Under the pieces are notes generated by a model, which was not told the origin of the DNA, ran no database searches, and saw only the letters and a program-made list of their open reading frames with translations. Positions 1 to 48,658 of a stretch of 64,000 nt of DNA are shown in pieces (the first letter of the stretch is position 1; each line of letters opens with the position of its first letter). Source of the stretch: an uncultured Verrucomicrobiota bacterium. GTDB lineage: Bacteria; Verrucomicrobiota; Kiritimatiellia; CAIKKV01; CAITUY01. The translations under genes were made by a program, and so were the position numbers. The DNA is taken from assembly GCA_964535015.1 (NCBI GenBank), contig CAZHRU010000003.1, positions 3,940 to 67,939 of the forward strand. Direction: 5' to 3'.

Positions 1-2162
1 GTGTACTGGAGGAGTTTCAGGCCAGGCGAGGGAAGTTGGGCGGGCAGGCTGCCGGGTTTGAGCAGCACCAGCGCCAACTGCGTATTTTGGGGCACCTGAC
101 GGAAGCGGCGCTGGCCTCATCGTCGTTCGTCGAGGCGTTGCGCGAATTAAGCGACGGTCTGGCTGAATTGCTTTCGTGTGATGTGGCGGGGTTGCTCGGT
201 TTTTCGGAGGGCCAGAAGATCCTGGTCCTGAGCGCGCAGAAGAAGGTGACCGAGGAGTTTCTGCGCCAGGCCGAGAGCGAGGTGATCAGCCGGTACAACT
301 CGCTTAGCGGTCAGCAGTTACAACGAACCGACTTGCGGATTCAATGGGAGGGGGAGCCGGTGACGGCGGACGGGGCCCCGGTCCCCGATCGGATGCTGGT
401 CATTCCGATCCTGGTTGGCAATGAAGTCAAGGGGGTGCTGTTGCTGGCGGCGGCGGCGGCCGAAGCCTTTGCCGAGACGGACATCGCCTTCATGTATCAC
501 ACCGCCAATCTGCTTTCGGCGATTCTTTCGGCGGTCAACCGGATCCGTCAGATGGCGGTACATGATGCGTTGACGGGGTTGCACAACCGGGCGCACCTTG
601 AGGAGCAGTTGGAGCGGGCCTGGTCCCTGGCCCGGCGGCATGGTCACCACATGGCGGTCATGATCATGGATTTGGACTACTTCAAGACCTTCAACGACAG
701 TCACGGGCACATGGTGGGGGACCGGTTGCTGAAGGAGTTTGCCGATATCCTGAAGCGGTCGGCACGAACGACGGATGTGGTGGCCCGGTATGGGGGTGAT
801 GAGTTTGTCATCATGTTGCCGGAGACTGATTTGCCGGCGGGCCTGATGTTGGGGAACCGCGTGTTAAAGCTGGTGAGCGAGCATGTATTCTGTGCCGATT
901 CGCTGGGGTTGAAGTTGACGGCCTCGATCGGGGTGGCCACCAGTCTGGATGTTGACCCGGAGGCGCGCGCGTCCGAGATGTTGCGTCTTGCCGATATTGC
1001 GTTGTATGACGCGAAACGTGAGGGGCGCAACTGTGTCCGGTTGTGGTCGGCGGGGAGGGGGGGGCGGGAAACGCAGGCGCCCGAGGGGGGGGCGGAAGGA
1101 CGGGACAAGCCGGGACAGGGGCGAATTCTTCTGGTGGACGACGACTTGGCGATCCTGGAGGTGGTGTCGAGCATGCTGGGGAGCGCTGGTTACACGGTTG
1201 ATGCGGAATCCTCATCGTCGGAGGCTTTTCGCCGGTTGGAGGAGAGCGTCGGGGTTTATGACGTGGTTTTGACGGACCTGCTGATGCCGGACGTGGATGG
1301 CCTGCAGATTCTGGACCGGGTTCGCATGATTGATACGTTGGCGATGCCGATTGTGATGACGGGGCAGGCCACCAAGGATACAGCGGTGTCCAGTTTGCGG
1401 CACGGGGCGTTTGAGTTCATCGAGAAGCCGATCAGAAAGGGTGAACTACTGGCGGTGGTGGAGCGCGCCCGCGAGTACAGGCGGCTCAGGGTGGAGAACG
1501 ACCGTTACCGGATCAGGCTGGAGGACATGGTTCGCCAGAAGAGCAGTGAGTTGGTTGATGCGCTGGAGCGGGTCAAGCACTCGCATGAGTTCACGTTGCT
1601 GGCGCTGGCCAGTCTGTTGGATGCGCGGGAACAGGCGACGGGGCGGCACAGTCTGCGGGTACGGGACTTGGCGTGTGTGCTGGGGCAGGAGATGGGGATG
1701 ACGGAGCACGAATTGAACACGTTGAGGCAGGGCGCCTTGTTGCACGATATCGGCAAGATCGCCGTGCCCGATGCCATTCTTCTCAAGCCGGGGCCGCTGA
1801 CGGAGGAGGAGTGGAAAGTGATGAAGACGCACTCGGAGGTCGGGTACAACATCCTCAAGATCAGTCCGTACATGCAGGAGGTGGCCGATCTGGTGTACTC
1901 GCATCAGGAGCGGTATGACGGGACGGGGTATCCGCGGGGATTGAAAGGCGATGCCATTGCGCTCACGGCGCGGCTGTTTGCGGTGGTGGATGCGTATGAC
2001 GCGATGCGGTCGCATCGGCCTTACCGCCGGGCCATGACTTCGGTCCGGGCGGTGGAGGAGTTAAAGCGGAATGCCGGGACCCAGTTTGATCCGGCGGTGG
2101 TGGCGGCCTTTCTGCAGTGCGAGCATGCCATTGAAGCGGTGGGCCGCTGGGTGCCGGACTGA
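1..2162 (+). CDS. Multidomain c-di-GMP signalling protein: GAF - GGDEF (diguanylate cyclase) - receiver (REC) - HD-GYP phosphodiesterase. Open at the 5' window edge, so possibly N-terminally truncated.
   Basis: ORF 36..2162, and the frame stays open upstream to nt 3. GGDEF motif RYGGDEFVIM. REC motif ILLVDDDLAILEV...VLTDLLMPDVDG. HD-GYP motifs HDIGKIAVPD and YSHQERYDGTGYPRGL. Confidence 0.8.
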   Translation, partial: VLEEFQARRGKLGGQAAGFEQHQRQLRILGHLTEAALASSSFVEALRELSDGLAELLSCDVAGLLGFSEGQKILVLSAQKKVTEEFLRQAESEVISRYNSLSGQQLQRTDLRIQWEGEPVTADGAPVPDRMLVIPILVGNEVKGVLLLAAAAAEAFAETDIAFMYHTANLLSAILSAVNRIRQMAVHDALTGLHNRAHLEEQLERAWSLARRHGHHMAVMIMDLDYFKTFNDSHGHMVGDRLLKEFADILKRSARTTDVVARYGGDEFVIMLPETDLPAGLMLGNRVLKLVSEHVFCADSLGLKLTASIGVATSLDVDPEARASEMLRLADIALYDAKREGRNCVRLWSAGRGGRETQAPEGGAEGRDKPGQGRILLVDDDLAILEVVSSMLGSAGYTVDAESSSSEAFRRLEESVGVYDVVLTDLLMPDVDGLQILDRVRMIDTLAMPIVMTGQATKDTAVSSLRHGAFEFIEKPIRKGELLAVVERAREYRRLRVENDRYRIRLEDMVRQKSSELVDALERVKHSHEFTLLALASLLDAREQATGRHSLRVRDLACVLGQEMGMTEHELNTLRQGALLHDIGKIAVPDAILLKPGPLTEEEWKVMKTHSEVGYNILKISPYMQEVADLVYSHQERYDGTGYPRGLKGDAIALTARLFAVVDAYDAMRSHRPYRRAMTSVRAVEELKRNAGTQFDPAVVAAFLQCEHAIEAVGRWVPD

Positions 2163-3585: not shown

Positions 3586-5588
3586 GGTGGTGGCCCTCCT
3601 CCTTCAATAGCCGGAAGGCGCACGGTGACACAGGTTCCGAGTTCGTTCGAGTGAATGGCGATCTGGCCGTTATGGTCAAGGATGGTGCGTTGTGCGACGG
3701 GGAGGCCGAGGCCGATTCCGCGTGCCTTGGTGGTGTAGAAGGGGGAGAAGACCTTGCTGAGGTGATCGGCGGGGATGCCCGGGCCGTTATCCTTGACGAC
3801 AAGGACCACGGTGGGTTGGAGGGGGTCGTCCTGTTGGGCATGCAGGAGGAGGGACAGTTCGGGACGGGGTTGGTTGGCCAGGGCCTCGATGGCATTGCGG
3901 ATGAGGTGCTGGAAGGCTTCACCAAGGGCGCGGGCGTCGCCGTTCACCTTGGGAATGGGGGTATCGGCTGAGATTCGCGTATGGAGGGCCTCGCGTTGTG
4001 CGGGCGTGAGGAGCGAGGCGAGGGAGGTCTCCACAATGGCGGCGATGTTCAGAGGTGATGGATGGAGGGGTGGGGGGTGCGCGTAGTCGTTGATCTGATT
4101 GATAATGGCGTTCAGGCGGTCCACTTCCAAAGAGACGAGGTCGCTGAACTCGGCCCGGAATTCCTTGTCGTCGTACCGTTCCGGCAGCAATTGGGCAAAG
4201 GTTTTGATGGTGACCAGAGGGTTGCGGACCTCGTGTGACATTCCGGCGGCCAGTTCGGCCCAGAAGGTGGCGCGTTCGAGCCGTTCTGTTTTTTCCAGGA
4301 GGATTGCCTGATCGGTCACGTCCTGGATGATGGCCAGGGCGCCCAGGCAGAGGGCGCGGTTGATCAGGCGTTCTGTCCGGACGATCAGGCTGCGACGGGT
4401 GGATGGATCAATCCAGGACGCATTGCCGGGGACCCCATTTTCGCCCAGGGTGCGCCGGAAGATATCGGCCAGACGACCGTCGACGGCCTCAATGGGGTGG
4501 CCGGTGGCGGATTCGGCGTTGCCGCCGATCATGTCACGGGCGGCTTGATTGCACCAACGGACGATGCCATCGGCGTCCACGGCGATGATGCCGGAGGGGA
4601 GGGCATGGAGGAGGGTTTCGGCCAGTGTTTTCTGAAGTGTGACCTCCTCAAGGAGCAGGGCGTTCTCAAGCGTTGTGGAGACGCAGTCGGCGAGGGCGAT
4701 CAGGTTTTCGACACGGGTATTGTCGAAGGGGGCCCCGGTGGAGAGGTGGCCGACGTGGATCCAGCCGAGGAGTCGGTCGCGGGATTGGAGAGGAACGAGG
4801 GCCTCGGCGCCCAGTTGATCCAGTGTCTGAGCGAGAACGAGGCGGGTGGTGGGGTCCTCGGTGAGGTTCAGGTTGGAACGGGTGATGGCGTGGGCCCGGA
4901 GTTTCAGCCAGCGGACGAGCGGGTGGTTGGCATCGAATTCCAGTCCGGCGGTGTTTTCCATGCAGCGGACATTTGCCCTGAGTCGGTAGTATTCGCCGTC
5001 GCGGGTGCGGCAGAAGATGCCTACGCGCGCCACCTTCAGGGTGCCGGCGGTTTCATCGGCGAGACGGTGCAGGAGGGAGTCCACATTGCTGAACTGACGG
5101 AGTGCGGAGGAGAAATCGCTGACCGTGAGGCAGGCCGGGCGGGTATCGGCGTTGCGGGTGGTGTCGGAGTTTATGATGGCGGACAGGCGGGCGGTATCGG
5201 CCCGCAGGCGGCGATTATCCTCGGCGGTGGACAGATGAGTCAAGGCGCGTTCAACCAGAGAGGAGATTCGGCGGTAGTCCGCCTCGGCGTCCTCCACGGC
5301 ATAGAGTCCCATTCCCTGTGCGGCGAGCATGGGGTCGCTGCCGGGGACGCCAAAGGCGATGATCAGGCCGTGGGGCCAGGAGGCGGTCAGGTGGTGGAGT
5401 TGGTCGAAAACGCCGGGGGACTGGAGATCCATCAGTAGGAGGCAGGCGGGCAGGCGGTCGAGTTCGGCGGACAGTTCATGTGGTGAGGACACGGGTTGCA
5501 CCGAGACGATGCCGTCCAATCCCGCGCACAGGCGTTGAGCCCATGTGTCGGAATTACTGCAAAGCAGACAGGTTAGGGGTGATTTCAT
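3582..5588 (-). CDS. Cytoplasmic sensor histidine kinase (N-terminal REC-like domain, GAF, PAS, HisKA, HATPase_c; NtrB/AtoS type).
   Basis: H-box MSHEVRNPLVTIKTFAQLL. G-box/HATPase DNGPGIPADHLSKVFSPFYTTKARGIGLGL. No predicted TM segments. Start/stop overlaps with neighbouring genes on both sides. Confidence 0.85.
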   Translation of the reverse strand: MKSPLTCLLCSNSDTWAQRLCAGLDGIVSVQPVSSPHELSAELDRLPACLLLMDLQSPGVFDQLHHLTASWPHGLIIAFGVPGSDPMLAAQGMGLYAVEDAEADYRRISSLVERALTHLSTAEDNRRLRADTARLSAIINSDTTRNADTRPACLTVSDFSSALRQFSNVDSLLHRLADETAGTLKVARVGIFCRTRDGEYYRLRANVRCMENTAGLEFDANHPLVRWLKLRAHAITRSNLNLTEDPTTRLVLAQTLDQLGAEALVPLQSRDRLLGWIHVGHLSTGAPFDNTRVENLIALADCVSTTLENALLLEEVTLQKTLAETLLHALPSGIIAVDADGIVRWCNQAARDMIGGNAESATGHPIEAVDGRLADIFRRTLGENGVPGNASWIDPSTRRSLIVRTERLINRALCLGALAIIQDVTDQAILLEKTERLERATFWAELAAGMSHEVRNPLVTIKTFAQLLPERYDDKEFRAEFSDLVSLEVDRLNAIINQINDYAHPPPLHPSPLNIAAIVETSLASLLTPAQREALHTRISADTPIPKVNGDARALGEAFQHLIRNAIEALANQPRPELSLLLHAQQDDPLQPTVVLVVKDNGPGIPADHLSKVFSPFYTTKARGIGLGLPVAQRTILDHNGQIAIHSNELGTCVTVRLPAIEGGGPPP

Positions 5589-34529: not shown

Positions 34530-35495
34530 GTGACGCGGGCGCGGGTGTTCGTTCTCGGGTTGTCCCTGCTGGTGTCCGCTTCGTATGCGCGGGCGGCCTT
34601 GAGTATCGGGGAGATGATACAGTTTCTGGAGGATCGCGGGTTGCCGGGCGTGTCGACCACGGCGGTGGAAAGTGCGATTACCGGGTTGATCCGATCGATA
34701 GATTCCGAGGCCAGGATCTGCACACCGGAGGAGGCCGCGTCTATCCGCACCGAATGGACCGGCGTGGGGCAGAGCGGGGCAACCAACGGCGGGTGGTCAG
34801 GGTCGGTGGACATGTTCGAGTCCTGGCCGGAGGGTCTTGCCTATCTGAAGATCAAGGGGCTTTACCGCGGTGGTGGAGTGGAGATCATGGGGCACTTGCG
34901 GACATTGTCGAAGAGGGCGGGGGTGATCATGGATCTCCGGGGGACCGACGGGGCCGACTTGGATGCCGTGGTGGCGTTGGCGAGTCCGTTCTATTGTTCC
35001 GGGGATGTGCTTTTCCGTGTGGAGACCCGGGCGGGGGCGCCGGTGGAAACCCGTGTGGCCGGCGAGGGGACCGCGTTGAAGACGCCGTTGCTGGTGTTGA
35101 TTGATCATGACACGCGTTGTGCGGCGGAAACCCTGGTGGCGTTATGGAACGGCAAACCGGGTGTCATGTTGATTGGCGAGTCCACGCGGGGGGATACCGG
35201 GGTGCGTGATCTGTTGCCGTTGCCGGATGGGCGTTTCCTGTATATGGCCACGAAAAGGCTGGTTCCGGTGGCGACGGCGTATGGGGCGAAGGGGGTGTGT
35301 CCCGACGTGGCGGTGGATACGAAGGGCGGGAGTGTAACACCCCTGGTGCATGCGCCCGGCCACGGCCGCCCGCTCAGTGCGAAGTCGCTGGAAGACCGGG
35401 ACTTGATGATGCGGGTGGATTCCGATCCGGTGTTGAGGCGGGGAACCGACATTCTCCTGGCGTTGCGGGCAATTGACAACCATGGCAATCCCTGA
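34530..35495 (+). CDS. S41-family peptidase (C-terminal processing peptidase-like), secreted. Start uncertain (GTG 34467 / 34530).
   Basis: Signal peptide RARVFVLGLSLLVSASYA. S41 core segments GVIMDLRGTDGADLD and PLLVLIDHDTRCAAETLVALWN...LIGESTRGDTG. Confidence 0.6.
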   Translation: MTRARVFVLGLSLLVSASYARAALSIGEMIQFLEDRGLPGVSTTAVESAITGLIRSIDSEARICTPEEAASIRTEWTGVGQSGATNGGWSGSVDMFESWPEGLAYLKIKGLYRGGGVEIMGHLRTLSKRAGVIMDLRGTDGADLDAVVALASPFYCSGDVLFRVETRAGAPVETRVAGEGTALKTPLLVLIDHDTRCAAETLVALWNGKPGVMLIGESTRGDTGVRDLLPLPDGRFLYMATKRLVPVATAYGAKGVCPDVAVDTKGGSVTPLVHAPGHGRPLSAKSLEDRDLMMRVDSDPVLRRGTDILLALRAIDNHGNP

Positions 35496-36543
35496 CTCCA
35501 TCATTATTCCCGTGGATGCCAGGCGGCCCGACCCCGCGGCGGTTCGGCGTGCCGTCAAGGTGTTGCGAGCCGGGGGGCTCGTGATTGTTCCGACGGAGAC
35601 GGTGTACGGGTTGGCGGCGGACCCCGGGGTGGACGGGGCGGAGGATCGTATCTACGAGGCCAAGGCGCGGGATCGGGGGAAGCCGATTCCCCTACTGGCG
35701 ACCAGCCAGGAGGCGGTGGCGCGATGGGGGGGCACATTGTCGTGTGCGGCGCGGCGGTTGGCGCGGCGATACTGGCCGGGGCCCCTGACCCTGGTGTTGC
35801 CCTGTGGCGACCGGGCGGAGGGTTTCAGGGTGCCGGACCATGCGGTGACTCAGGCGTTGCTCAAGGCGGCGGGAGGGGTATTGCGGGTGACCAGTGCCAA
35901 CGTGAGTGGAGATCCGGCGGCGAGGAATGCCCAGGAGGCGCTGGCGGCACTGGGTGACCGCGTGGGACTGGTGTTGGACGCCGGGCCGGCGGCGCTGGGC
36001 CGGGAGAGTACGGTGGTGGATGCCACCGGCGAGGTTGTGAAGGTCCTGCGTGAGGGGGCGATTCCGTCGGGCCGGATTCTGGCCAGGCCCCTGGTTTTGT
36101 TTGTTTGCACCGGCAATATCTGCCGGAGTCCGATGGCCGAGTATCTCCTGCGCCGGTGGCTGGGGCCGGAGAGTTCCTGGGAGGTGGGTTCCGCCGGCGT
36201 TTCGACGGCGGATGGGTTGGAGGCCAGCGAGGCGGCGGTAATGGCGATGGAGGACGCGGGGCTGGATGCGTCGGGGCACCGGAGCCGGCGCCTGACCCCG
36301 GCGCTGGTTGACGCCGCCGACCTGGTTGTGGTAATGACCGATGCGCACCGTCGGATCGTCCTCGGTCAGTTTCCCGGAGCCCGCCACAAGGTGGTCCTGT
36401 TGAATGCATTCAACAGTGTCCGGCGGAACGAGGATGTGGAGGATCCCATCGGGATGTCGCTCGATGTCTACCGGCAGACGCGGGATGAGATGAATGCGGC
36501 CATGCCGGATCTGGTGTTGCATTTGCACGAATTGCTTCAATAA
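35473..36543 (+). CDS. Fusion protein: L-threonylcarbamoyladenylate synthase (TsaC/YrdC/Sua5 domain) plus low-molecular-weight protein tyrosine/arginine phosphatase (LMW-PTP).
   Basis: YrdC segment LVIVPTETVYGLAADP...LTLVLPCGD...RVTSANVSGDP. P-loop LFVCTGNICRSPMAEY, with DP catalytic Asp later. Single ORF, no stop between domains. Confidence 0.8.
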   Translation: MTTMAIPDSIIIPVDARRPDPAAVRRAVKVLRAGGLVIVPTETVYGLAADPGVDGAEDRIYEAKARDRGKPIPLLATSQEAVARWGGTLSCAARRLARRYWPGPLTLVLPCGDRAEGFRVPDHAVTQALLKAAGGVLRVTSANVSGDPAARNAQEALAALGDRVGLVLDAGPAALGRESTVVDATGEVVKVLREGAIPSGRILARPLVLFVCTGNICRSPMAEYLLRRWLGPESSWEVGSAGVSTADGLEASEAAVMAMEDAGLDASGHRSRRLTPALVDAADLVVVMTDAHRRIVLGQFPGARHKVVLLNAFNSVRRNEDVEDPIGMSLDVYRQTRDEMNAAMPDLVLHLHELLQ

Positions 36544-36558: not shown

Positions 36559-38241
36559 ATGAAAATAGCGATTGGCGCGGACCACGGCGGTTTTGAGTTG
36601 AAAACCCACCTGCTCGGATGGCTCCGGGAGCGCGGGATTACGGTGGAGGACGTGGGTTGCTACAGTAACGAAGCGGCGGACTATCCCGACTATGCCCGTC
36701 TGGTGTCGGTGATGGTGTCCGAAGGGTTGGTTGACCAGGGCATCCTGATTTGCCGGACCGGGCTGGGGATGAGCATGGCGGCCAACAAGTTTCCGCGCGT
36801 ACGTGCGGCGTTATGCCTGACGCCGGACATGGGGCGGGTGGCCCGGGTTCATAACAACGCCAATGTGTTGGTGCTGGGAAGCGACAACAATTCCCATGAC
36901 AAGATTGGGGCCATCGTCAAGGCGTGGTGCGAGGCCCGGTTTGAAGGGGATGAACGGCACCAGCGGCGCGTGAACAAGATTGGCGCGATGGGGGGATCGG
37001 CTGTGGAGATGGCGGCGGTTGGCCTGGTGGATCCCGAGATTTACGATGCGATCAAGGGCGAGGAGGATCGCGAACAGAAGACGCTGGATTTGATCGCCTC
37101 CGAGAATTATGCCAGCCGGGCGGTGCGCGAGGCGCAGGGGTCGCTGATGACCAACAAGTATGCGGAAGGCTATCCTGGCAAGCGGTACTACAACGGGTGC
37201 GAGTTTGTTGACGTGGCCGAGCGTCTGGCGATTGAGCGGGCCAAGGCCCTGTTCGGCGCCGAGCATGCGAATGTCCAGCCGCATTGCGGGAGTTCGGCCA
37301 ATATGGCGGTTTACTTCGCGATGTTGCAGCCGGGCGATACGATTCTGGCCATGAGTCTGGCGCATGGGGGGCACCTGACACACGGGCACAAGGTCAACTT
37401 TTCCGGGCGTCTTTTCAACATCGTCTCCTACGGGGTCAACAAGGGGACGGAGTTGATTGATTACGACGAGGTGGAGGGACTGGCAAAACAGCACAAGCCC
37501 AAGTTGATTGTTGCCGGCGCCAGTGCCTATCCGCGGGTGCTCGAGTTTGCGCGGTTGCGCCAGATTGCCGACCGTGTCGGTGCCCTGCTGATGGTGGACA
37601 TGGCGCACATTGCCGGTCTGATCGCCGCCGGAGTGCATCCCAACCCCGTGCCTTACAGCGACTTTGTGACGACCACCACGCATAAGACGTTGCGCGGTCC
37701 GCGTAGCGGCATGATCCTGTGCCGTGCGGTCTACGCCCAGGAAATCGACAAGACGGTATTCCCGGGATTGCAGGGCGGTCCGCTGATGCATACGATTGCC
37801 GCCAAGGCCGTGTGCTTCAAGGAAGCCGCGTTGCCGGACTTCAAGGCCTACCAGCGGCAGGTGGTGACGAATGCACGGTTATTGGCGGACTATCTTTCCA
37901 AGCACGGGATGCGGATTGTGTCGGGCGGCACGGATAACCACCTGATGCTGGTGGATCTGACGGGTATTGGCAGTACCGGCAAGGATGCGGCGGTGGCCTT
38001 GGAGAAGGCGGGAATCGTGGTCAACAAGAACGCGATCCCGTTCGATGCCAAGCCGCCGGCGGTGACCTCCGGTATCCGCATCGGGACTCCGGCGGTGACC
38101 ACGCGGGGTCTCAAGGACGCCGAGATGACGCTGTTGGGGCAATGGATTGTGGATGCGGTCAAGCATCAGGGGGATGGGAAACGGTTGGAGAAGATCCGGG
38201 GCGAGGTCCAGGCGCTGGCACTGCGATTTCCGATACCGTAG
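36559..38241 (+). CDS. glyA: Fusion protein: ribose-5-phosphate isomerase B (RpiB/LacAB) plus serine hydroxymethyltransferase (GlyA).
   Basis: RpiB segment [15 protein letters not shown]...[21 protein letters not shown] segments [55 protein letters not shown] and PLP-Lys region [14 protein letters not shown]. 560 aa = 145 + 415. Confidence 0.85.
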
Positions 38242-39454: not shown

Positions 39455-39484
39455 AGTATGGGTAATCCATGGAGGGTGGAGGTT

Positions 39485-39898
39485 ATGAAGAACATTTGCA
39501 ATACGTTGGCGGTGCTGGCGGTGATGACCGTTCTGGTGATGTGTTTTGCCTGTGCTAAACGGGAACCGGTGAGTCATTTCGTTATTGTGCCGCGGAGCGG
39601 GCAGACTGAAATTGCCGCGGCGGATATTGAGAAATTGCGGGTAACATTGGACGCGGTCGGCGAACATTACAAGATGACGAAAAAGCAGTCCGGGCAGGCG
39701 GGGATCATCCGTTACTATGCACCCAACGACGACTACGAGATCGGGTTCTATGCCAAACGCGAGGCGTCGTACCTGAAGGTGTATGCGATTCCGATGACGC
39801 CGTCGGTTGCCGGTTCGAAGAACTTTGTGGCCTTCCGGCAGAACCTGGCGAATGTACTGTCGGGGGCGTTTCCGGGCCGGGTCTCCGTGGTGAAGTAG
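39485..39898 (+). CDS. Hypothetical lipoprotein.
   Basis: Signal/lipobox MKNICNTLAVLAVMTVLVMCFAC. Lower GC than the surroundings. No recognisable domain. Confidence 0.5.
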   Translation: MKNICNTLAVLAVMTVLVMCFACAKREPVSHFVIVPRSGQTEIAAADIEKLRVTLDAVGEHYKMTKKQSGQAGIIRYYAPNDDYEIGFYAKREASYLKVYAIPMTPSVAGSKNFVAFRQNLANVLSGAFPGRVSVVK

Positions 39899-39933
39899 CA
39901 GGCGAAGACGGTGGTGATGGGCAGGTCCGTTGC

Positions 39934-39980
39934 GGACGTTCAACGTTTGCCTCCACCGGGGCGAGCCCGGTGGCCGGCTG
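39934..39980. repeat. Hairpin-containing intergenic repeat (GACGTTCAACGTTTGCCTCCACCGG-loop-CCGGTGG), related to the 48474-48658 array.
   Basis: 25 of 26 nt identical to 48609-48634. Perfect 8-bp stem CCACCGGG/CCCGGTGG. Confidence 0.8.
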
Positions 39981-40063
39981 CCGTCATGTCGCCAAGACTC
40001 AGAGATGCGCCCCCGGGAATCATCCTGTTGACGGATGCCTGCAAATGTGCGTATTAATGATCT

Positions 40064-42904
40064 ATGAAGCATGGCCTATTTGTCGCGGGTTGTTGTGCGC
40101 TAGTGATGGTCGCCCTACTGGCCGGGGGATGCGCCTCGACGGCGATCAAAGGGACTCCGTTCTACACAGCCGTGGATGAGAAGCCGGCGGGGCCGCCGGA
40201 GGATCGTATCTGGGCCTGGCCCTTGGTCTACTATCGCGATCCGGCGCTTTCGATCCTGTGGCCCATCTTCGAGAAGAACGACCAATGGCTTGCCGTAAGG
40301 CCGGTTTTCTCGATCTACGGGCTGGACCGTGGCAAGCATCAGTACAATGTGCTGTGGCCGATCGCCCAGTGGGATTGGGAGACGGGCAACCATCGCGTCT
40401 TTCCCTATTTCTGGGGGGCTAATTACCGGGCGTTGTTCCCCTTGTATTGGCACTTCAATCACCCGTTGAACGGGTACGGAACCGATACGCTTTTCCCGTT
40501 GTGGTATTACACCCGGAACGCGGGGCAGTACAGTTTCTGGGCGGTGGGTCCGGTGTTCCACTCCAAGAATCGCGGGGGTGAAACCGGCTGGCACGTGTGG
40601 CCGGTGACGGGGCATTACGCGGGTTCGGATCACAGTTACCGGTTCTTTGCCTGGCCGCTGGCCCACCAGTGGCGCGGGCACGGGGACCGGGGTGCGGATA
40701 CGATCATTCCGTTATTCTATCGTGGATGGGGCCCAGACAGCCGCACGTTTATCAGTCCGTTGTGGATGACGCGCTCCAATGAAGGGGAAACGTGGCGATG
40801 TCTGCCACCCCTGTTCTACGAGCAATCCGGCAAAGGGGCGTCGCGGTTCCTTTCCCTGCCCTGGTCCTATGGTGCCGAGCGGGACGGCAGTGCGTGGCAT
40901 CTCGCTTTTCCTTTCTACTTCGATAAAGTTGCTTCCAATCGCGTCACCCGTCTGACGCCTTTGGGCGGGTCGAGGACGGTGGGTGAACGAACGGAGTGGG
41001 GTGTTGTGCCGGTGCTTTCGTGGGGGACAACGACACCCACGAGCCATTCCACCTGGGTCGCGGCGGGCCTGGCCCATCATTCGCAGGATGGCGCCAGTCG
41101 GTCACACCATGTATTGCCCCTGTACTACTCCAGCAGTGATTCGGATAGTTCCACCTTCATTTCCATTCCCTATAGTCAGCGGCGGACCGTTAGTGGCGCC
41201 CAATGGGATCTGGCGTTCCCATTGGTGTACCGGTACCGGTCGCCGGAGGCGAACCGGTGGATAACTCCGTTGGCGGCGGGCGGCGGGACGACCGATGGGC
41301 GCGAACGCTGGCATGCCATTCTGCCCCTGTACTATAGTCAGCAAGACGGGCAGGGGAGTTCGCTGGTCACCCTGGCGGGGGGATATCACCGCGATCCATC
41401 CGGGACGCGGTGGAATGCGTGGCCGTTGCTGACCTGGCGGACGGAGGACAAGGAGGGTTCCGATTTCTGGGCACTGGCACCCCTGATTCATGCCCGGCAC
41501 GAAGCGGGATATTCCACACACCATGTGTTACCCGTTTACTACTGGAACAGTCGTACGGACAGTCTTGTTTCCCTGCTGGCCGCGCGTTGGCAGACAGCGG
41601 CATCCAATACGGTGACGTTGGTCCCGCCGGCGTTGAGTTGGAAGGTGACGTCGACAAACCGGTCGGATCTCTGGTTGGCTGGCGGACTGGCCAGGGCCAG
41701 TTGGGGGGCGAAGCCGGGGCCCCATCATGTCGTTCCCTTGTATTACCGTGACCGGGAACGCGACACCTTCATTTCGCCGGTTTTTGCTCAATGGGAGGCC
41801 AGTGATGAGTCGCGGGTTACTGTGATTCCGCCCCTATTGGGTGCGGGAAGTTCATCACCGCAGAACAGGGATCTGTGGTTTCTGGCGGGATTGGGCAAGG
41901 CCAGTTGGGGTGAACATCCGGGGGCCCGCTATCTGGTTCCCCTTTTCTATGAGAACCCGCAGACGGGCTCGTTTATTTCGCCGTTCTTTACCCGGTCCAC
42001 TGCCGGAACGCGCGACACCCGTTTCTACCCGCCGCTCCTGTCTCTTGACATCACCGACGGATCGCAGCGCGACATCTGGGGGTTGGCCGGCCTCGCGCAT
42101 TACTCCGGCGATTCAGTGACCCGCACCAGCAGTGGCTACCTTCTGCCGCTTTTCTATTATGACTCCACCAACACGCTTCTCACTCCGCTCTTCGGACGTC
42201 ATCGCCAAAATGAGAACGGGTTCTTCTATCCGCTCACGCCGCTGGCTGGTGTCCGCACGGGGCAACGGTCGGGGGGGTGGTTGTTTCCGCTTTTTTCGCA
42301 CACGCGCCAGCGGGAAAGTGGTGACATCAACGGCATGGTTCTTTGGGGTCCGTACTGGCGTGATCATGTCCGCAAGGGGGCGTTTCTGTTTCCGTTCTTC
42401 TATCACCAACGTGATCTTGCGCCACTGAACAGCAAAGAGAGCGTCAATCGCAAGACGTATGTCTTTCCGACGTTCTGGAAGCGGACGTTGGCCTACACGG
42501 AGGTCGGGTCCAATTCAAGAAAGCGGATTCTGGATACGAAGAATATGTTTGTGCCGTTTTGGGCGCACACGGAGACAGGGGTTTTGGGGAAGGCGCCTGA
42601 TGTGGCTGAGACGTCCGTCCTGCTGGGGGCCTGGAACAGCCGGAAAGAGAAAGTGGCGGCGCCGGGTTCAGATCAGACCGTTACGCAATGCCGGAAGCGG
42701 CTCCTGTGGTGGCTCTGGCGATATGACCGGAACGGCGCGGATATGGCGATGGATATATTTCCGGGGATCAGCATTGACCGGAAGGGCGACGGATTCAAGA
42801 AGACGGCCTTCTTCTACCGCCTCTACCGCAACGAGGTAACGCCCGACGGCAAGCGCAAGATGGATATCCTGTTCATTCCGATCCTGCGCCCCCGCCAGGG
42901 GTAG
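40064..42904 (+). CDS. Large repeat lipoprotein (946 aa) built of ~15-18 tandem W/Y/P-rich modules; function unknown.
   Basis: Lipobox LLAGGCAS. Recurrent module ...DLW.LAGL[AG]+ASWG..PG.[HRY][HY]+VPL[FY]Y......[ST]FISP.F... (HHVLPLYY, HHVVPLYY, RYLVPLFY, GYLLPLFY, AILPLYY ...). Confidence 0.6.
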   Translation: MKHGLFVAGCCALVMVALLAGGCASTAIKGTPFYTAVDEKPAGPPEDRIWAWPLVYYRDPALSILWPIFEKNDQWLAVRPVFSIYGLDRGKHQYNVLWPIAQWDWETGNHRVFPYFWGANYRALFPLYWHFNHPLNGYGTDTLFPLWYYTRNAGQYSFWAVGPVFHSKNRGGETGWHVWPVTGHYAGSDHSYRFFAWPLAHQWRGHGDRGADTIIPLFYRGWGPDSRTFISPLWMTRSNEGETWRCLPPLFYEQSGKGASRFLSLPWSYGAERDGSAWHLAFPFYFDKVASNRVTRLTPLGGSRTVGERTEWGVVPVLSWGTTTPTSHSTWVAAGLAHHSQDGASRSHHVLPLYYSSSDSDSSTFISIPYSQRRTVSGAQWDLAFPLVYRYRSPEANRWITPLAAGGGTTDGRERWHAILPLYYSQQDGQGSSLVTLAGGYHRDPSGTRWNAWPLLTWRTEDKEGSDFWALAPLIHARHEAGYSTHHVLPVYYWNSRTDSLVSLLAARWQTAASNTVTLVPPALSWKVTSTNRSDLWLAGGLARASWGAKPGPHHVVPLYYRDRERDTFISPVFAQWEASDESRVTVIPPLLGAGSSSPQNRDLWFLAGLGKASWGEHPGARYLVPLFYENPQTGSFISPFFTRSTAGTRDTRFYPPLLSLDITDGSQRDIWGLAGLAHYSGDSVTRTSSGYLLPLFYYDSTNTLLTPLFGRHRQNENGFFYPLTPLAGVRTGQRSGGWLFPLFSHTRQRESGDINGMVLWGPYWRDHVRKGAFLFPFFYHQRDLAPLNSKESVNRKTYVFPTFWKRTLAYTEVGSNSRKRILDTKNMFVPFWAHTETGVLGKAPDVAETSVLLGAWNSRKEKVAAPGSDQTVTQCRKRLLWWLWRYDRNGADMAMDIFPGISIDRKGDGFKKTAFFYRLYRNEVTPDGKRKMDILFIPILRPRQG

Positions 42905-45556: not shown

Positions 45557-46345
45557 TTACGGGAAGTTGATATCCAACTGGGTCGTGAACATGTTGGAAC
45601 CCGCGAGACTGGGTTCTTCCCACATGTCGTACCCGAAGATCACGGAGACGTTCTTGGAGAAGGCCCAGGCCGCGCCGAAACTCAGGCCGCTCAGGGCGTT
45701 GTTCCCGCCCTGATAATCCACGGCGACCCACAGTTTGTCCGAGATCTCGCTCACGGTGCGGTCCCACGACAGAAGGATGCCGTCGGCGGCTTCGTTGCCG
45801 TTCTTATCCAGCAACACATCGCCGTTCCCGCTGTAGTAGCCGGCCGAAAAGCGGCCGAGGGACGGAATGGCACCGAAGGCCGGCATTGTCTTGGCCGCGA
45901 GACCATAGACGATGTTCTGGTCAGTTCGCGTGGGGCTGTTCTCCTTCGAATGGGTGCCGAAGTTGAACCCGCCTACCGCGAGGGCCGGTGAGTAGGGGCA
46001 CAAGGCATCCTCGGCCACGCCCACCTTGGCGTTGAAATAGAACGGGTGGTCGTCATAGGCCGTTCCATTCACCAGATAGTCGGCGCCGACTTCCGCCTTG
46101 ATGGTTTCGAACGGAAGGACGCCGACGGTGATGCCGACATCATAGACGTTGGGGTCCCGCTCGCCCGCGGTGAACCGTCCGTTGTCCGAGGACCGGACGT
46201 AGTTGTCCAATCCGAGATGCCAGACGTTAAACGGTTGAATGTCCGTGGAGGGAATCCAGATCTGGGTTGAAGGGGTTGCCATGCCCAGATTGGCCGAGCC
46301 TGAACACAGTACGCCTGCGATGAGTCCTGCGATTGTCTTTTTCAT
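45557..46345 (-). CDS. Outer-membrane beta-barrel (porin-like) protein, downstream of glnK.
   Basis: Signal peptide MKKTIAGLIAGVLCSGSA. Alternating-hydrophobic beta-strands. C-terminal ...QLDINFP. Start at 46345. Confidence 0.5.
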   Translation of the reverse strand: MKKTIAGLIAGVLCSGSANLGMATPSTQIWIPSTDIQPFNVWHLGLDNYVRSSDNGRFTAGERDPNVYDVGITVGVLPFETIKAEVGADYLVNGTAYDDHPFYFNAKVGVAEDALCPYSPALAVGGFNFGTHSKENSPTRTDQNIVYGLAAKTMPAFGAIPSLGRFSAGYYSGNGDVLLDKNGNEAADGILLSWDRTVSEISDKLWVAVDYQGGNNALSGLSFGAAWAFSKNVSVIFGYDMWEEPSLAGSNMFTTQLDINFP

Positions 46346-46434
46346 AGTACACTTACCTTTCTTTTGTTTGTTTTGTCTGGTTATGAGTTGCGGGATGGCG
46401 CACCACCCGGGGCGCCATCCCATCCGGGGAATGA

Positions 46435-46776
46435 TTATCCGATGGCGGGACCTCCTGTTTCTCCGGTCCGGATGCGGATGCATTCGGCAAGGTCCAGGAC
46501 GAAGATCTTTCCGTCCCCGACTTTCCCTGTTCGGGCCGCTCCGGTGATGGCCTCGATTGTCGGCTTCACGAAGTCGTCGTTCACCGCGATCTCCAGTTTC
46601 ACTTTCTTCAGCAAGGTCCCGGCCTCCTTATGACTACGGTAGACTTGGGCGATACCGCCCTGCCGGCCGCGTCCCATGACGCTGGTCACGGTGACCAGAT
46701 GGATCTGGTTGGCGGTCAACTGTTCCAGGACTTCTTCCATCCGGTCCGGTTGAATAATGGCTACGATGTATTTCAT
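46435..46776 (-). CDS. glnK: Nitrogen regulatory protein P-II (GlnK/GlnB).
   Basis: Family segment MKYIVAIIQPDRMEEV...TGAARTGKVGDGKIFV...IRIRTGE. Start 46776; the track ORF is extended. Confidence 0.9.
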   Translation of the reverse strand: MKYIVAIIQPDRMEEVLEQLTANQIHLVTVTSVMGRGRQGGIAQVYRSHKEAGTLLKKVKLEIAVNDDFVKPTIEAITGAARTGKVGDGKIFVLDLAECIRIRTGETGGPAIG

Positions 46777-46819
46777 GTTATTTTGTTCCTTCCGTTCTTT
46801 GTTGTATTCATTAGGGGAC

Positions 46820-48184
46820 TCAATCCAGCATTGTGTAACCGGTTTCACGGTGATCCGTGAGATCCAGGCCGATCCGCTCGGATTGTTCGGTGGCGCGCAG
46901 GCCGATCGTCTTATCCACGAGTTTCAGCAGGACAAAACTGGCCACGGCGGAATATGCCACGGTGACGGCGACGGCCTTGAGTTGGATCAGGAACTGGCCG
47001 GGGTTTCCGTAGAACAGGCCGTTGGCGCCCGCGCTATTGACGGTGGTGGTTGCCCACAACCCGGTGGCTAGGGCGCCCCAGATTCCGCCCACGCAGTGGA
47101 CGCCGAAGGCATCCAGGGCGTCATCGTATCCGAGTTTCTCCTTCAGGACGCTGACGAACAGGTAGCAGATGACGCCTGCGCCGATGCCGATGCCGATGGC
47201 ACCGCCGACGTTGACGAAGCCCGCGGCGGGGGTAATGGCAACCAGGCCGGCCACCGCGCCGGAGATCATGCCCAGCATGGTCATGCGCCGGTTGAACGCC
47301 ACATCCATCAGTGCCCAGGCCAGACCCGCCACGGCGGAAGCCACATGCGTCACCACGAAGGCATTGCCCGCCAAGCCATTGGCGCCGAGCGCGCTTCCGG
47401 CGTTGAACCCGTACCAGCCGAACCACAGCAGGGATGCGCCCATGACGGCGAACGGCAGGTTATGGGGCGGCGAGATTTTGTGGGGGTGCCCCAGGCGGCG
47501 TCCCAGCACCAGGGCGGCGACCAGGGCCGCGATACCGGCGTTGATATGGACCACGGTGCCGCCGGCAAAGTCCAGTGCGCCCATTTTACGGAGGAATCCG
47601 CCGACGCCCCACACCCAGTGGCACACGGGGTCATAGACGAGGGTGGACCAGAGCACCATGAAGACGGCGAAGGCGGCGAACTTCATACGTTCGGCAAAGG
47701 CGCCGATGATCAGGCCGGGAGTGATGACGGCAAACATCATTTGAAAGACCATGAAGACCTGGTGCGGTATGGTGCCGGCGTAGTCGGCATTGGGTTCCAT
47801 TCCCACCATCTTCAGCATCGCCCAATCCAGATTGCCGATTACTCCCTTGATGTCAGGGCCGAACGAGAGACTATACCCGAACAGTACCCATTGCAGGCTG
47901 ACGGCGCACATCAGGAAGAAGCACTGCATCAGGATCGAGAGCACGTTCTTCTTTCTAACCAGGCCCCCGTAGAACAGGGCGAGGCCCGGGATGGTCATCA
48001 GCATCACCAGAGCGGTGCTGACGAGGACCCAGGCGGTATCGCCCGAGTTCACGGCGGAGGCGACAACTGCAACCGGCGCCGCCGTTGTTGCGGCGGTCTC
48101 ATCCGCCAGAGCGGCGCTTGTGCCCGCCAGTGCCAATCCCGTTCCCATTAGTAACGTCATCCATCCTCTCGTTTTCACCTTCAT
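46820..48184 (-). CDS. amt: Ammonium transporter (Amt/MEP family).
   Basis: GGAGGA RBS, then MKVKTRGW... at 48184. Signal peptide plus ~11 TM helices. Family segments ...GGTVVHINAGIAALV... and ...DDALDAFGVHCVGGIWG.... glnK lies immediately downstream. Confidence 0.9.
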   Translation of the reverse strand: MKVKTRGWMTLLMGTGLALAGTSAALADETAATTAAPVAVVASAVNSGDTAWVLVSTALVMLMTIPGLALFYGGLVRKKNVLSILMQCFFLMCAVSLQWVLFGYSLSFGPDIKGVIGNLDWAMLKMVGMEPNADYAGTIPHQVFMVFQMMFAVITPGLIIGAFAERMKFAAFAVFMVLWSTLVYDPVCHWVWGVGGFLRKMGALDFAGGTVVHINAGIAALVAALVLGRRLGHPHKISPPHNLPFAVMGASLLWFGWYGFNAGSALGANGLAGNAFVVTHVASAVAGLAWALMDVAFNRRMTMLGMISGAVAGLVAITPAAGFVNVGGAIGIGIGAGVICYLFVSVLKEKLGYDDALDAFGVHCVGGIWGALATGLWATTTVNSAGANGLFYGNPGQFLIQLKAVAVTVAYSAVASFVLLKLVDKTIGLRATEQSERIGLDLTDHRETGYTMLD

Positions 48185-48473
48185 TCCTCCTTCTTCTGTT
48201 GAGCTTCTCATTGTGTGACTCCAACCATTGTTGTCTGGGTCTATATCATGATGTGTGCCAACCCTTGTCCTGTGCAGGTGTCGCAAGTCGCAAGTGGCTT
48301 GTGAGAAATGACATACAGATAATATTATTGTGGGGCGCCAGGCGGGTCGCTTGAATTACTATGATTCAATTATGTAGGTGAGATTGGCAAACATACAGAA
48401 CTGTAACTCATTTACCTGTATCGAACACGGTGAAGGTTTGCATGGATTTCTCTCCTGGGGCAGACCGTGCTGA

Positions 48474-48658
48474 ACATGTCAGGGATGCCGTGGATGTTCA
48501 CCGTTTGCCTCCACCGGCGCAAGGCCGGTGGGCGGCGAAGTCACGGGGATGCCGGTGGGCGGCGAAGTCACGGGGATGCCGGTGGGCGGCGAAGTCACGG
48601 GGATGCCGTGGACGTTCAACGTTTGCCTCCACCGGCGCAAGGCCGGTGGGCGGCGAAG
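48474..48658. repeat. Complex tandem repeat: 27-bp unit GGTGGGCGGCGAAGTCACGGGGATGCC x3 (plus partial copies) interleaved with two 37-bp hairpin units (...GTTTGCCTCCACCGGC-GCAAG-GCCGGTGG...).
   Basis: Direct reading of 48482-48658. 8-bp perfect stems with GCAAG loops. Intergenic, between the amt and tetR promoters. The overlapping track ORFs 48430..48726 and 48467..48733 are repeat artefacts. Confidence 0.85.

Follow-up and report, generated by a model that had tools for sequence, protein, structure and literature searches.

A lipoprotein family of Kiritimatiellia and related bacteria predicted to form a long single-layer beta-meander ribbon with one hydrophobic and one charged edge

This report deals with a single gene on a 64,000-nucleotide stretch of DNA from an uncultured Verrucomicrobiota bacterium of the class Kiritimatiellia (GenBank assembly GCA_964535015.1, contig CAZHRU010000003.1, positions 3,940 to 67,939 of the forward strand), hereafter called the window. 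The gene occupies positions 40064..42904 (+), begins with ATG and encodes 946 amino acids (aa) followed by a stop codon. An earlier note, made from the letters alone, had listed this open reading frame (ORF), and the ORF is real: the public collection contains an identical 946-aa protein (P0001) as well as many full-length homologs of 800-1200 aa. The product is predicted to be a lipoprotein whose chain is folded into a continuous, single-layer antiparallel beta-meander, with turns that alternate strictly between a hydrophobic and a charged edge of the resulting ribbon.

The N-terminus is formed by a signal peptide and lipobox (40064..40132, +; aa 1-23, ending in LLAGG-C23). The lipobox had been pointed out before and is kept in most of the family: G22 and C23 are present in at least 90% of the sequences of A1, a 71-sequence alignment of homologs that was used for conservation and for AlphaFold2, and the cysteine is found in 143 of the 157 N-terminally complete homologs, in which Asp never occurs at +2, the residue there being A, S, or T. 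With signal peptide, lipobox, and conserved cysteine all recognizable at the sequence level, the prediction that the protein is a bacterial lipoprotein and a substrate of signal peptidase II is strongly supported. The cysteine is followed by a flexible tether (40133..40204, +; aa 24-47), for which the predicted local distance difference test score (pLDDT) is below 50 at aa 19-43. Within the tether lies the motif KGTPFY (nt 40148-40165, +; aa 29-34), of which K29, G30, and T31 are each kept in at least 90% of the A1 sequences and P32 is invariant, and its spacing from the cysteine is fixed at 6 residues in 138 homologs. The composition of the 946-aa protein is rich in W (5.1%), Y (4.9%), P (7.1%), L (9.2%), and G (9.1%), as described earlier, and basic residues are in excess in the mature protein (98 K+R versus 76 D+E).

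Behind the tether, the chain consists of tandem repeats. The earlier note had described 15-18 modules of 45-55 aa; the repeats themselves exist, whereas number and length were wrong. The base repeat has a core of about 24 aa with the consensus PLGHYWRGGGESWSLLFPLYYYRR, which recurs 21-24 times according to an iterated unit profile and shows a core spacing of 34 +/- 2 aa between aa ~145 and ~780. The strict motifs proposed at that time occur 3-4 times each versus about 0 expected in shuffled sequences, and a relaxed motif, P[LVF][FYLV][YSFW], occurs 17 times versus 0.74 expected. Each 34-aa repeat comprises four short strands, and 19 units of this length make up the regular repeat core (40496..42415, +; aa 145-784). 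Paired units form six strong central super-modules of about 66-68 aa, which were detected by a profile built from one module (E-values of 1e-10 to 1e-31) at aa 195-250, 322-383, 460-526, 529-594, 597-661, and 667-717 (+); they are mutually 21-38% identical, and weaker half-units lie between them. A search for tandem repeats at the DNA level of the gene found none, and the duplications are therefore old and the array ancient.

The regular core is flanked by two less uniform regions. At the N-terminal side, irregular hairpin repeats (40205..40495, +; aa 48-144) carry WP or FP turn motifs every 12-19 aa, and shorter units at the level of single hairpins are seen at aa 47-145. These repeats were delimited by matches of the unit hidden Markov model (HMM) and by anchor spacings. 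The alternation of hydrophobic and polar turns described below is already present in this region (connectors 0-11), which was modelled with lower confidence (pLDDT 48-68). The C-terminal region (42416..42901, +; aa 785-946) is the most conserved one and also obeys the alternation (connectors 87-100); its strands are longer (7-9 aa), its hydrophobic turns are very aromatic (LLWWLW, FFYRLY, ILFI), and L881, W882, P900, Y904, D905, W918, R919, Y923, E924, and P939 are invariant or nearly so in A1. Homologs contain between 14 and 29 units, a variation that is more easily reconciled with an open ribbon whose length can be adjusted than with a closed ring of fixed size; such a ring is thus unlikely.

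The full-length AlphaFold2 model computed from A1 contains about 100 strands of 4-6 residues (pLDDT 78.1; predicted template modelling score, pTM, 0.50). Foldseek searches with the whole protein matched teneurin/Rhs proteins, the ApoB100 belt, OspA, and the G-box with E-values down to 8.6e-8 and TM-scores below 0.13, that is, with a merely local likeness of strand states that is unusable for fold assignment. Therefore, a fragment of eight units (aa 145-420) was modelled, which gave 32 strands with a pLDDT of 95.4 and a pTM of 0.67 and the topology of a continuous single-layer antiparallel beta-meander. The best superposition of the fragment was obtained with the G-box of CPAP/SAS-4 (4ld3_A: TM-score normalized to the target, TMt, 0.54; root-mean-square deviation, rmsd, 6.8 Å; probability 1.00), closely followed by a second G-box structure (4lzf_A: TMt 0.53, rmsd 6.5 Å, probability 1.00); MORN1 of Toxoplasma gondii (6t6q) was found with TMt 0.40 and probability 1.00, and OspA was matched as well. 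No beta-helix and no taco-shaped lipid-transfer fold was among the matches of the fragment, and a library of viral structures contained no analogue (TM-score <= 0.34).

A key property of the protein is the chemistry of its turns. From aa 52 to 937, hydrophobic and polar connectors alternate through all 101 positions, and the phase never slips. Those with even numbers (51) are uncharged and hydrophobic, with a family-wide fraction of D, E, K, and R (DEKR) of about 0.00 and with Pro in 80-100% of the sequences at most sites; typical examples are LFPLF, VLPLY, IIPLF, and AWPLV, and near the C-terminus the aromatic turns cited above. Those with odd numbers (50) have a polar character (DEKR 0.21-0.52), and about half of their residues are G, N, D, or S. 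Since successive turns of a meander lie on opposite edges, one edge of the ribbon is hydrophobic and the other one charged. The composition of the Pro loops (L.35, P.26, F.10, W.06, D+E.001) is followed by an ordered series of layers across the ribbon: at depth 0 from the hydrophobic edge, charge is absent and 40% of the residues are aliphatic and 30% aromatic; at depths 1-2, about 30% are W, Y, or F and 7-11% His, and K+R exceed D+E; at depths 3-4, K+R account for 20-30% and their ratio to D+E reaches 4.2; and at depth 5 and in the polar loops, D+E exceed K+R (ratio 0.56) and Gly accounts for 16-19%. Perfect edge polarity combined with interfacial layering is thus a strongly supported property of the ribbon. 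Both faces are hydrophobic near the hydrophobic edge, and amphipathicity of the strands from face to face, as in an ApoB-like belt, was tested and rejected as not significant (0.53 versus a null of 0.48 +/- 0.04); the polarity therefore runs across the width of the ribbon and not from face to face. With the standard beta geometry of about 4.8 Å per strand and 3.3 Å per residue, the ribbon would be up to ~480 Å long, if straight, and ~25 Å wide, and its hydrophobic and aromatic zone would measure ~12-14 Å, which corresponds to the depth of about one leaflet. The sequence of aliphatic tip, aromatic belt, basic collar, and acidic exterior is typical of an order selected by insertion into a leaflet of anionic phospholipids.

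The predicted topology was compared with residue covariation in 186 family sequences (effective number of sequences 147), for which mutual information with average product correction was calculated and the ladders were pooled around each connector. Across the Pro turns, the pooled signal showed residues paired in register (p = 2e-7), and hairpins are supported at turns of either kind, whereas pairs as expected for long strands (k = 8-13) gave no signal (0.65 versus 0.69, p = 0.68). It follows that every connector is a hairpin turn and the chain a meander. Based on the models and, independently of them, on covariation, the predicted fold as a single-layer antiparallel beta-meander ribbon of about 101 strands is well supported.

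The family to which the protein belongs matches no described repeat family, as the earlier note had supposed from the motifs, and this now rests on profile searches in Pfam, NCBIfam, and the PDB. The sole Pfam match of the window protein is below the threshold and covers the signal peptide; NCBIfam gave no match, and sequence and profile searches against the PDB gave nothing meaningful. The absence of Pfam matches extends to the propeller repeat families (WD40, PQQ, Kelch, NHL, YWTD, and others), to MORN and TCP10_C, and to the beta-helix, TPR, and Sel1 families, the predicted structure being all-beta; no match was obtained in Pfam or NCBIfam for outer-membrane protein (OMP) families or bridge-like lipid-transfer families (AsmA/TamB, Lpt, VPS13-type), nor for the RHS_repeat and YD_repeat profiles of both databases at E-values up to 10. 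None of the 120 best homologs has a precomputed Pfam domain listed, and wherever a source names one of them, the name is 'hypothetical protein'; and inspection of long family members for domain fusions revealed none. An HMM search of 1.84 billion cluster representatives yielded 2,452 at E <= 1e-3 and 678 at E <= 1e-30. A relative is encoded by at least 174 GTDB species genomes, almost all relatives belonging to Kiritimatiellia (including Pontiella), to 'Lentisphaerae/Victivallales', or to metagenome-assembled genomes (MAGs) of Verrucomicrobiota. The closest relative, 85% identical, is encoded in a Kiritimatiellia MAG (L007), where homology to the window begins just 45 bp before the ATG. At three loci (L002, L036, L055), two adjacent ORFs of the family are found, which could reflect tandem paralogy or a single gene broken by a frameshift. 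A literature survey on Kiritimatiellota lipoproteins and on single-layer-sheet lipoproteins retrieved nothing on this family. The proteins are thus, with strong support, an undescribed family of lipoproteins of the Planctomycetes-Verrucomicrobia-Chlamydiae (PVC) group, for which the window gene serves as founding member for the purpose of description. Each described family that was compared with it differs in a defining feature, and the likeness to G-box, MORN, and OspA is confined to the general architecture of the sheet. The novelty concerns both the protein family and the architecture, the latter as predicted by modelling; we know of no described protein that forms a ribbon of ~100 strands with a hydrophobic turn edge, and the literature survey revealed none.

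Three divergent long relatives extend the picture: P0213 (1767 aa), P0237 (1523 aa; L087 9001-13572), and P0227 (1354 aa; L088 9001-13065), which apparently stem from other phyla, their contexts being Bacteroidota-like and Myxococcota-like. They differ in composition and have no Pfam domain, and they consist almost entirely of hairpin repeats with an uncharged Phi-P-Phi turn and a charged turn at a spacing of 17-19 aa. DEKR is 0.00 at the Phi-P-Phi sites and 0.40-0.54 at the midpoints between them, and one of the three proteins has 79 Pro-turn sites. All three obey the same rule, and edge polarity is therefore the principle that a wider superfamily has conserved.

In the window, the gene is located downstream of nth (HhH-GPD and EndIII Fe-S domains) and is followed on the opposite strand by a convergent URO-D-like gene, in agreement with the earlier description of the neighbors, except that a 146-aa ORF (39458-39898, +) intervenes between nth and the gene. 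The N-terminus of this ORF resembles a signal peptide, with a possible lipobox (MCFAC); the ORF is without a match in Pfam and without a homolog in 86 fetched loci, including that of the 85% identical relative, and it is therefore either an orphan gene or no gene at all and not a conserved partner. Aas, DUF2339, DUF3999, DUF2157, and GDYXXLXY were not found elsewhere in the 64-kb window, in which the search for partner genes turned up nothing beyond an unrelated sigma-54 activator and, about 14 kb away, PlsY. Scans for promoters and terminators remained at chance level.

The statement that the gene has no obvious functional partner holds for the window and fails for a part of the family. When the neighbors were clustered across 84 loci, a recurrent operon arrangement emerged in one large subclade, which includes the lineage of the window. 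There, a sigma-54 activator on the opposite strand is followed by a protein of ~1,140 aa encoded on the same strand as the target gene (21 loci) and by the target gene itself, downstream of which DUF2157 (13 loci), GDYXXLXY (9), an alpha/beta-hydrolase (18), DUF2339 (15), and DUF3999 (11) are variably present. The ~1,140-aa protein scores 1350 bits against the NCBIfam Aas equivalog, whose cut-off is 1221, and has an N-terminal major facilitator superfamily (MFS) domain, which identifies it as an LplT-Aas fusion. Its gene is located directly upstream of the target gene in 21 of the 84 loci, all of this subclade. Because 4-bp overlaps are frequent (from Aas to the target gene in nine loci, and from the target to the next gene in several), these genes form operons in which the target is translationally coupled. 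As an example, L038 (6570-18828) contains LplT-Aas, target, DUF2157, GDYXXLXY, alpha/beta-hydrolase, DUF2339, and DUF3999, and the conserved operon is also present at L001, L003, L006, L010, L020, L021, L026, and L037. Adjacent to a divergent sigma-54 activator, genes for a UbiE-type methyltransferase and for a radical-SAM/SPASM protein recur just upstream of the Aas-target operon (L001 2425-4606, L003 2437-4614, L006 5611-7454).

In Pseudomonas aeruginosa, DUF2339 and DUF3999 constitute the Arc3 pair, which blocks the accumulation of lysophospholipids made by a phospholipase toxin of the T6SS (type VI secretion system); aas adjoins arc3 in many bacteria, and P. aeruginosa aas likewise encodes an LplT-Aas fusion (bioRxiv 10.1101/2021.08.22.457286; PMC8926400). 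Moreover, the esterase gene estA abuts the Pseudomonas arc3 locus, and the DUF3999 protein is a lipoprotein whose predicted site of action is the envelope (bioRxiv 10.1101/2021.08.22.457286). In the subclade, the target is therefore embedded in an operon of lysophospholipid repair and defence. The uncharacterised membrane-protein pair DUF2157/GDYXXLXY is thereby placed in the Arc3/Aas lysophospholipid-defence context as well. The names Arc3A and Arc3B have been swapped between publications, DUF2339 being Arc3B in one (bioRxiv 10.1101/2021.08.22.457286) and Arc3A in the other (eLife, PMC8926400), which can mislead the transfer of annotations. In the other clades, the recurrent neighbors are unrelated housekeeping genes; at the loci without the linkage, the neighbors are unrelated as well (cation efflux, subtilase, PyrK-like).

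Some further features of the window were noted. Just upstream of the target gene, the intergenic region 39890-40000 contains a GC-rich palindromic element with the core CCACCGGGGCGAGCCCGGTGG, for which a folding energy of -51 kcal/mol (z = -2.4) was calculated as RNA; further copies are located at 48496-48536 and 48610-48654 of the window and at 5279-5421 and 9434-9474 of L007, and the element resembles a dispersed repeat of the repetitive extragenic palindromic (REP) type or a terminator hairpin. At 45557-46483 (-), directly downstream of PII- and Amt-like ORFs (46435-48286, -), a secreted protein of 308 aa is encoded that has no Pfam match and whose sequence is beta-rich and porin-like; it may be an outer-membrane channel associated with ammonium uptake. 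Finally, the translations of two ORFs look like domain fusions, namely a Sua5/YrdC-type domain followed by a low-molecular-weight phosphotyrosine phosphatase (35473-36543, +) and RpiB followed by serine hydroxymethyltransferase (36559-38241, +).

The reading that we tentatively prefer, and that we hold to be somewhat more likely wrong than right as a whole, combines the lipid anchor, the ribbon, and its edge polarity into a protein that acts in envelope integrity. After cleavage by signal peptidase II, the lipidated Cys23 and the tether of ~25 residues would hold the protein on the membrane, and the remaining chain would form a continuous meander of about 101 short strands. This ribbon would stand upright on its hydrophobic edge within one leaflet of an envelope membrane, most likely the membrane that holds the lipid anchor, and would be buried about 12-14 Å deep, so that the protein would resemble a palisade of up to ~50 nm whose length varies with the number of repeats. 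Taken for itself, the edge-on insertion into one leaflet comes close to an even chance without quite attaining it. As to the role, the ribbon might buttress or shield the leaflet or hold regions damaged by lysolipids and in this way serve membrane integrity or lipid homeostasis; this part, which is based on the operon with LplT-Aas, hydrolase, and Arc3 that holds the gene in one large subclade, is possible, although clearly below probable.

Different explanations have been considered at the level of the fold. The idea of the earlier note of a beta-propeller or solenoid surface protein, taken here as an adhesin with the modules as blades or coils, did not hold and seems hardly credible now. Four strands per 34-aa unit are formally reminiscent of a blade, and many of the low-ranking Foldseek matches are WD40 or other propeller proteins; however, even on the fragment with a pLDDT of 95, propellers (BamB, Hsv2/Atg18, LRP6, Aip1) fail to superpose (TM-score 0.10-0.16, rmsd 20-40 Å), by which the beta-propeller was rejected, and the alternation of turns runs on without blade boundaries in a protein lacking propeller and beta-helix Pfam matches as well as any beta-helix among its structural analogues, while the predicted meander agrees with covariation. 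Scarcely better placed is the possibility that the short strands are the two halves of strands of 13-14 residues kinked at Pro, which would build a transmembrane beta-barrel of ~50 strands or a U-shaped taco. The segments of 13-15 residues between polar turns, with their uncharged hydrophobic center and polar ends, would suit such strands, and a direct reading of the sequence shows that some of them alternate hydrophobic and polar residues across the Pro. AlphaFold2, however, places hairpin turns at the Pro sites (pLDDT 95) between strands of 4-6 residues, a conserved Pro in mid-strand is incompatible with the regular hydrogen bonding of a barrel, and no OMP, Lpt, or TamB fold was matched with a meaningful TM-score. 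The long-strand topology, barrel or taco, was rejected by covariation, which is found across the Pro turns (p = 2e-7) and not for long-strand pairs (p = 0.68).

If the ribbon is accepted, the hydrophobic edge may still have a different purpose. It could be a protein-protein seam, with ribbons zipping along their Phi-P-Phi edges into a double-width ribbon, a fibre, or a sheet, which would serve as a scaffold in the periplasm or at the cell surface or as a coat resembling an S-layer, tethered by the lipid anchor. This explanation, which we consider rather unlikely while granting it real weight, draws on the same evidence for fold and edge polarity; G-box and MORN, the structural analogues, are assembly or dimerisation modules, the variation from 14 to 29 units suits a scaffold of adjustable length, and the gene context is not kept in most clades, as expected of a structural envelope protein. 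A symmetric seam, on the other hand, has no obvious need of ordered layers (aromatic/His, Lys/Arg, acidic rim), and both faces near the edge are hydrophobic; it is because of the interfacial layering and the lipid anchor that insertion into a leaflet is preferred over the seam. Alternatively, the edge could bind acyl chains or different hydrophobic cargo as on a rail, with the ribbon bridging the periplasm; much like bridge-like lipid-transfer proteins, it would help to shuttle lysophospholipids or phospholipids between outer and inner membrane, or store them for a time, and thereby feed LplT-Aas and Arc3. The operon with LplT-Aas, hydrolase, and Arc3 in one subclade would be accounted for, and the whole protein matches the ApoB100 beta-belt (E-value 2e-7) and, weakly, LptD and vitellogenin in Foldseek. 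These matches, however, have TM-scores below 0.1 for ApoB and LptD (LptD with an E-value of about 2e-3 or weaker and TM-scores of 0.05-0.10), a groove or taco is not predicted, and TamB/AsmA, Lpt, and VPS13-like folds are not among the matches. Moreover, an exposed edge would shield acyl chains poorly in water, the strands are not face-amphipathic, and a typical periplasm is shorter than the ~50 nm of the ribbon, so that transport along a rail appears improbable.

Several points weigh against the edge-on reading itself. The alignment used for covariation is of modest size, with weak register specificity at the polar turns (p = 0.089), and the pTM of the full-length model is just 0.50. A strongly twisted ribbon could not hold one edge in a planar membrane over its full length, and the hydrophobic edge might just as well lie buried between interacting proteins. 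The Aas/Arc3 neighborhood is missing around the window copy, in L007, in several whole clades such as Pontiella, and around the three distant relatives in other phyla; the functional link thus rests on the inherited synteny of one subclade, and the Aas/Arc3 association may be partly a product of such inheritance. A still bolder version of the edge-on reading would define a new class of monotopic proteins, in which a palisade of ~100 strands, with a keel of 51 conserved Phi-P-Phi turns below an aromatic belt and a basic collar, takes part as a hitherto unrecognised component in lysophospholipid or phospholipase defence together with LplT-Aas and Arc3 and whose principle recurs in proteins from other phyla with lengths of up to 1,767 aa; we regard it as unlikely in this complete form.

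If ribbons of this kind stand in the membrane edge-on, they would represent an undescribed manner of membrane attachment, in which a long beta-ribbon is inserted by its edge half a bilayer deep and neither spans the membrane nor lies flat on it. In Kiritimatiellia and related PVC bacteria, where the gene is near-ubiquitous (at least 174 species representatives), the protein would then offer a structural entry point to an envelope that is poorly known, and a candidate player would be added to the mechanistically unsolved Arc3/LplT-Aas pathway of lysophospholipid defence. Regardless of this, a family with 2,452 cluster representatives, of which none carries a Pfam domain, merits definition, and the perfectly regular alternation of turns is an attractive template for the design of beta-ribbons.

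Among known systems, the best three-dimensional match is the G-box of the eukaryotic centriole (CPAP/SAS-4, C-terminal domain of TCP10), which is likewise an elongated single-layer antiparallel meander. The identity in the structural alignment is 8-10%, and there is no sequence relationship; the G-box is soluble, lacks a lipid anchor, and has about 20 strands, compared with about 100 in the window protein, and to our knowledge alternating hydrophobic and polar turn edges are not known in it. MORN arrays such as MORN1 of T. gondii also consist of hairpin repeats in an extended single-layer sheet and have historically been linked to membrane association by their name, but the resemblance is limited to the fold: the MORN consensus (Y-x-G-x-W-x-x-G-K-x-x-G-x-G) is absent from the window protein, whose period is 34 aa with four strands versus 23 aa with two in MORN, and the Pro-turn edge is found only in the family described here.

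OspA of Borrelia is, like the window protein, a bacterial lipoprotein (of the outer surface) with a solvent-exposed single-layer antiparallel sheet (Foldseek probability 0.97); it has 21 strands and globular caps and possesses neither repeats nor a hydrophobic edge, the TM-score is about 0.2, and Pfam detects no relationship. The YD/Rhs shells of teneurins, Rhs proteins, and Tc toxins, which are long hairpin-repeat sheets of about 700-1000 residues, gave the top E-value of the whole-protein search (8.6e-8), but with a TM-score of 0.05-0.07 and an rmsd above 55 Å, and for the fragment the TM-score normalized to the query (TMq) was <= 0.19, which indicates local likeness; unlike these shells, the window protein has no YD motif, plug, or toxin domain. 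The ApoB100 beta-belt of low-density lipoprotein is likewise a very long antiparallel sheet associated with a lipid surface (E-value 2e-7, TM-score below 0.1). In ApoB, however, amphipathicity is from face to face, and the sheet rests flat on a lipid monolayer, whereas the polarity of the window protein runs from edge to edge.

With Arc3 and LplT-Aas, its operon partners in one large subclade, the target shares no sequence or domain, and the arc3 locus as described for Pseudomonas does not include it; the DUF3999 protein of Arc3 is a lipoprotein as well. A precedent in concept is MlaA, a small alpha-helical ring that sits on a porin and has no structural or sequence similarity to the window protein; like the ribbon proposed here, it is a lipoprotein placed in a single leaflet, being embedded in one leaflet of the outer membrane, where it serves phospholipid homeostasis.

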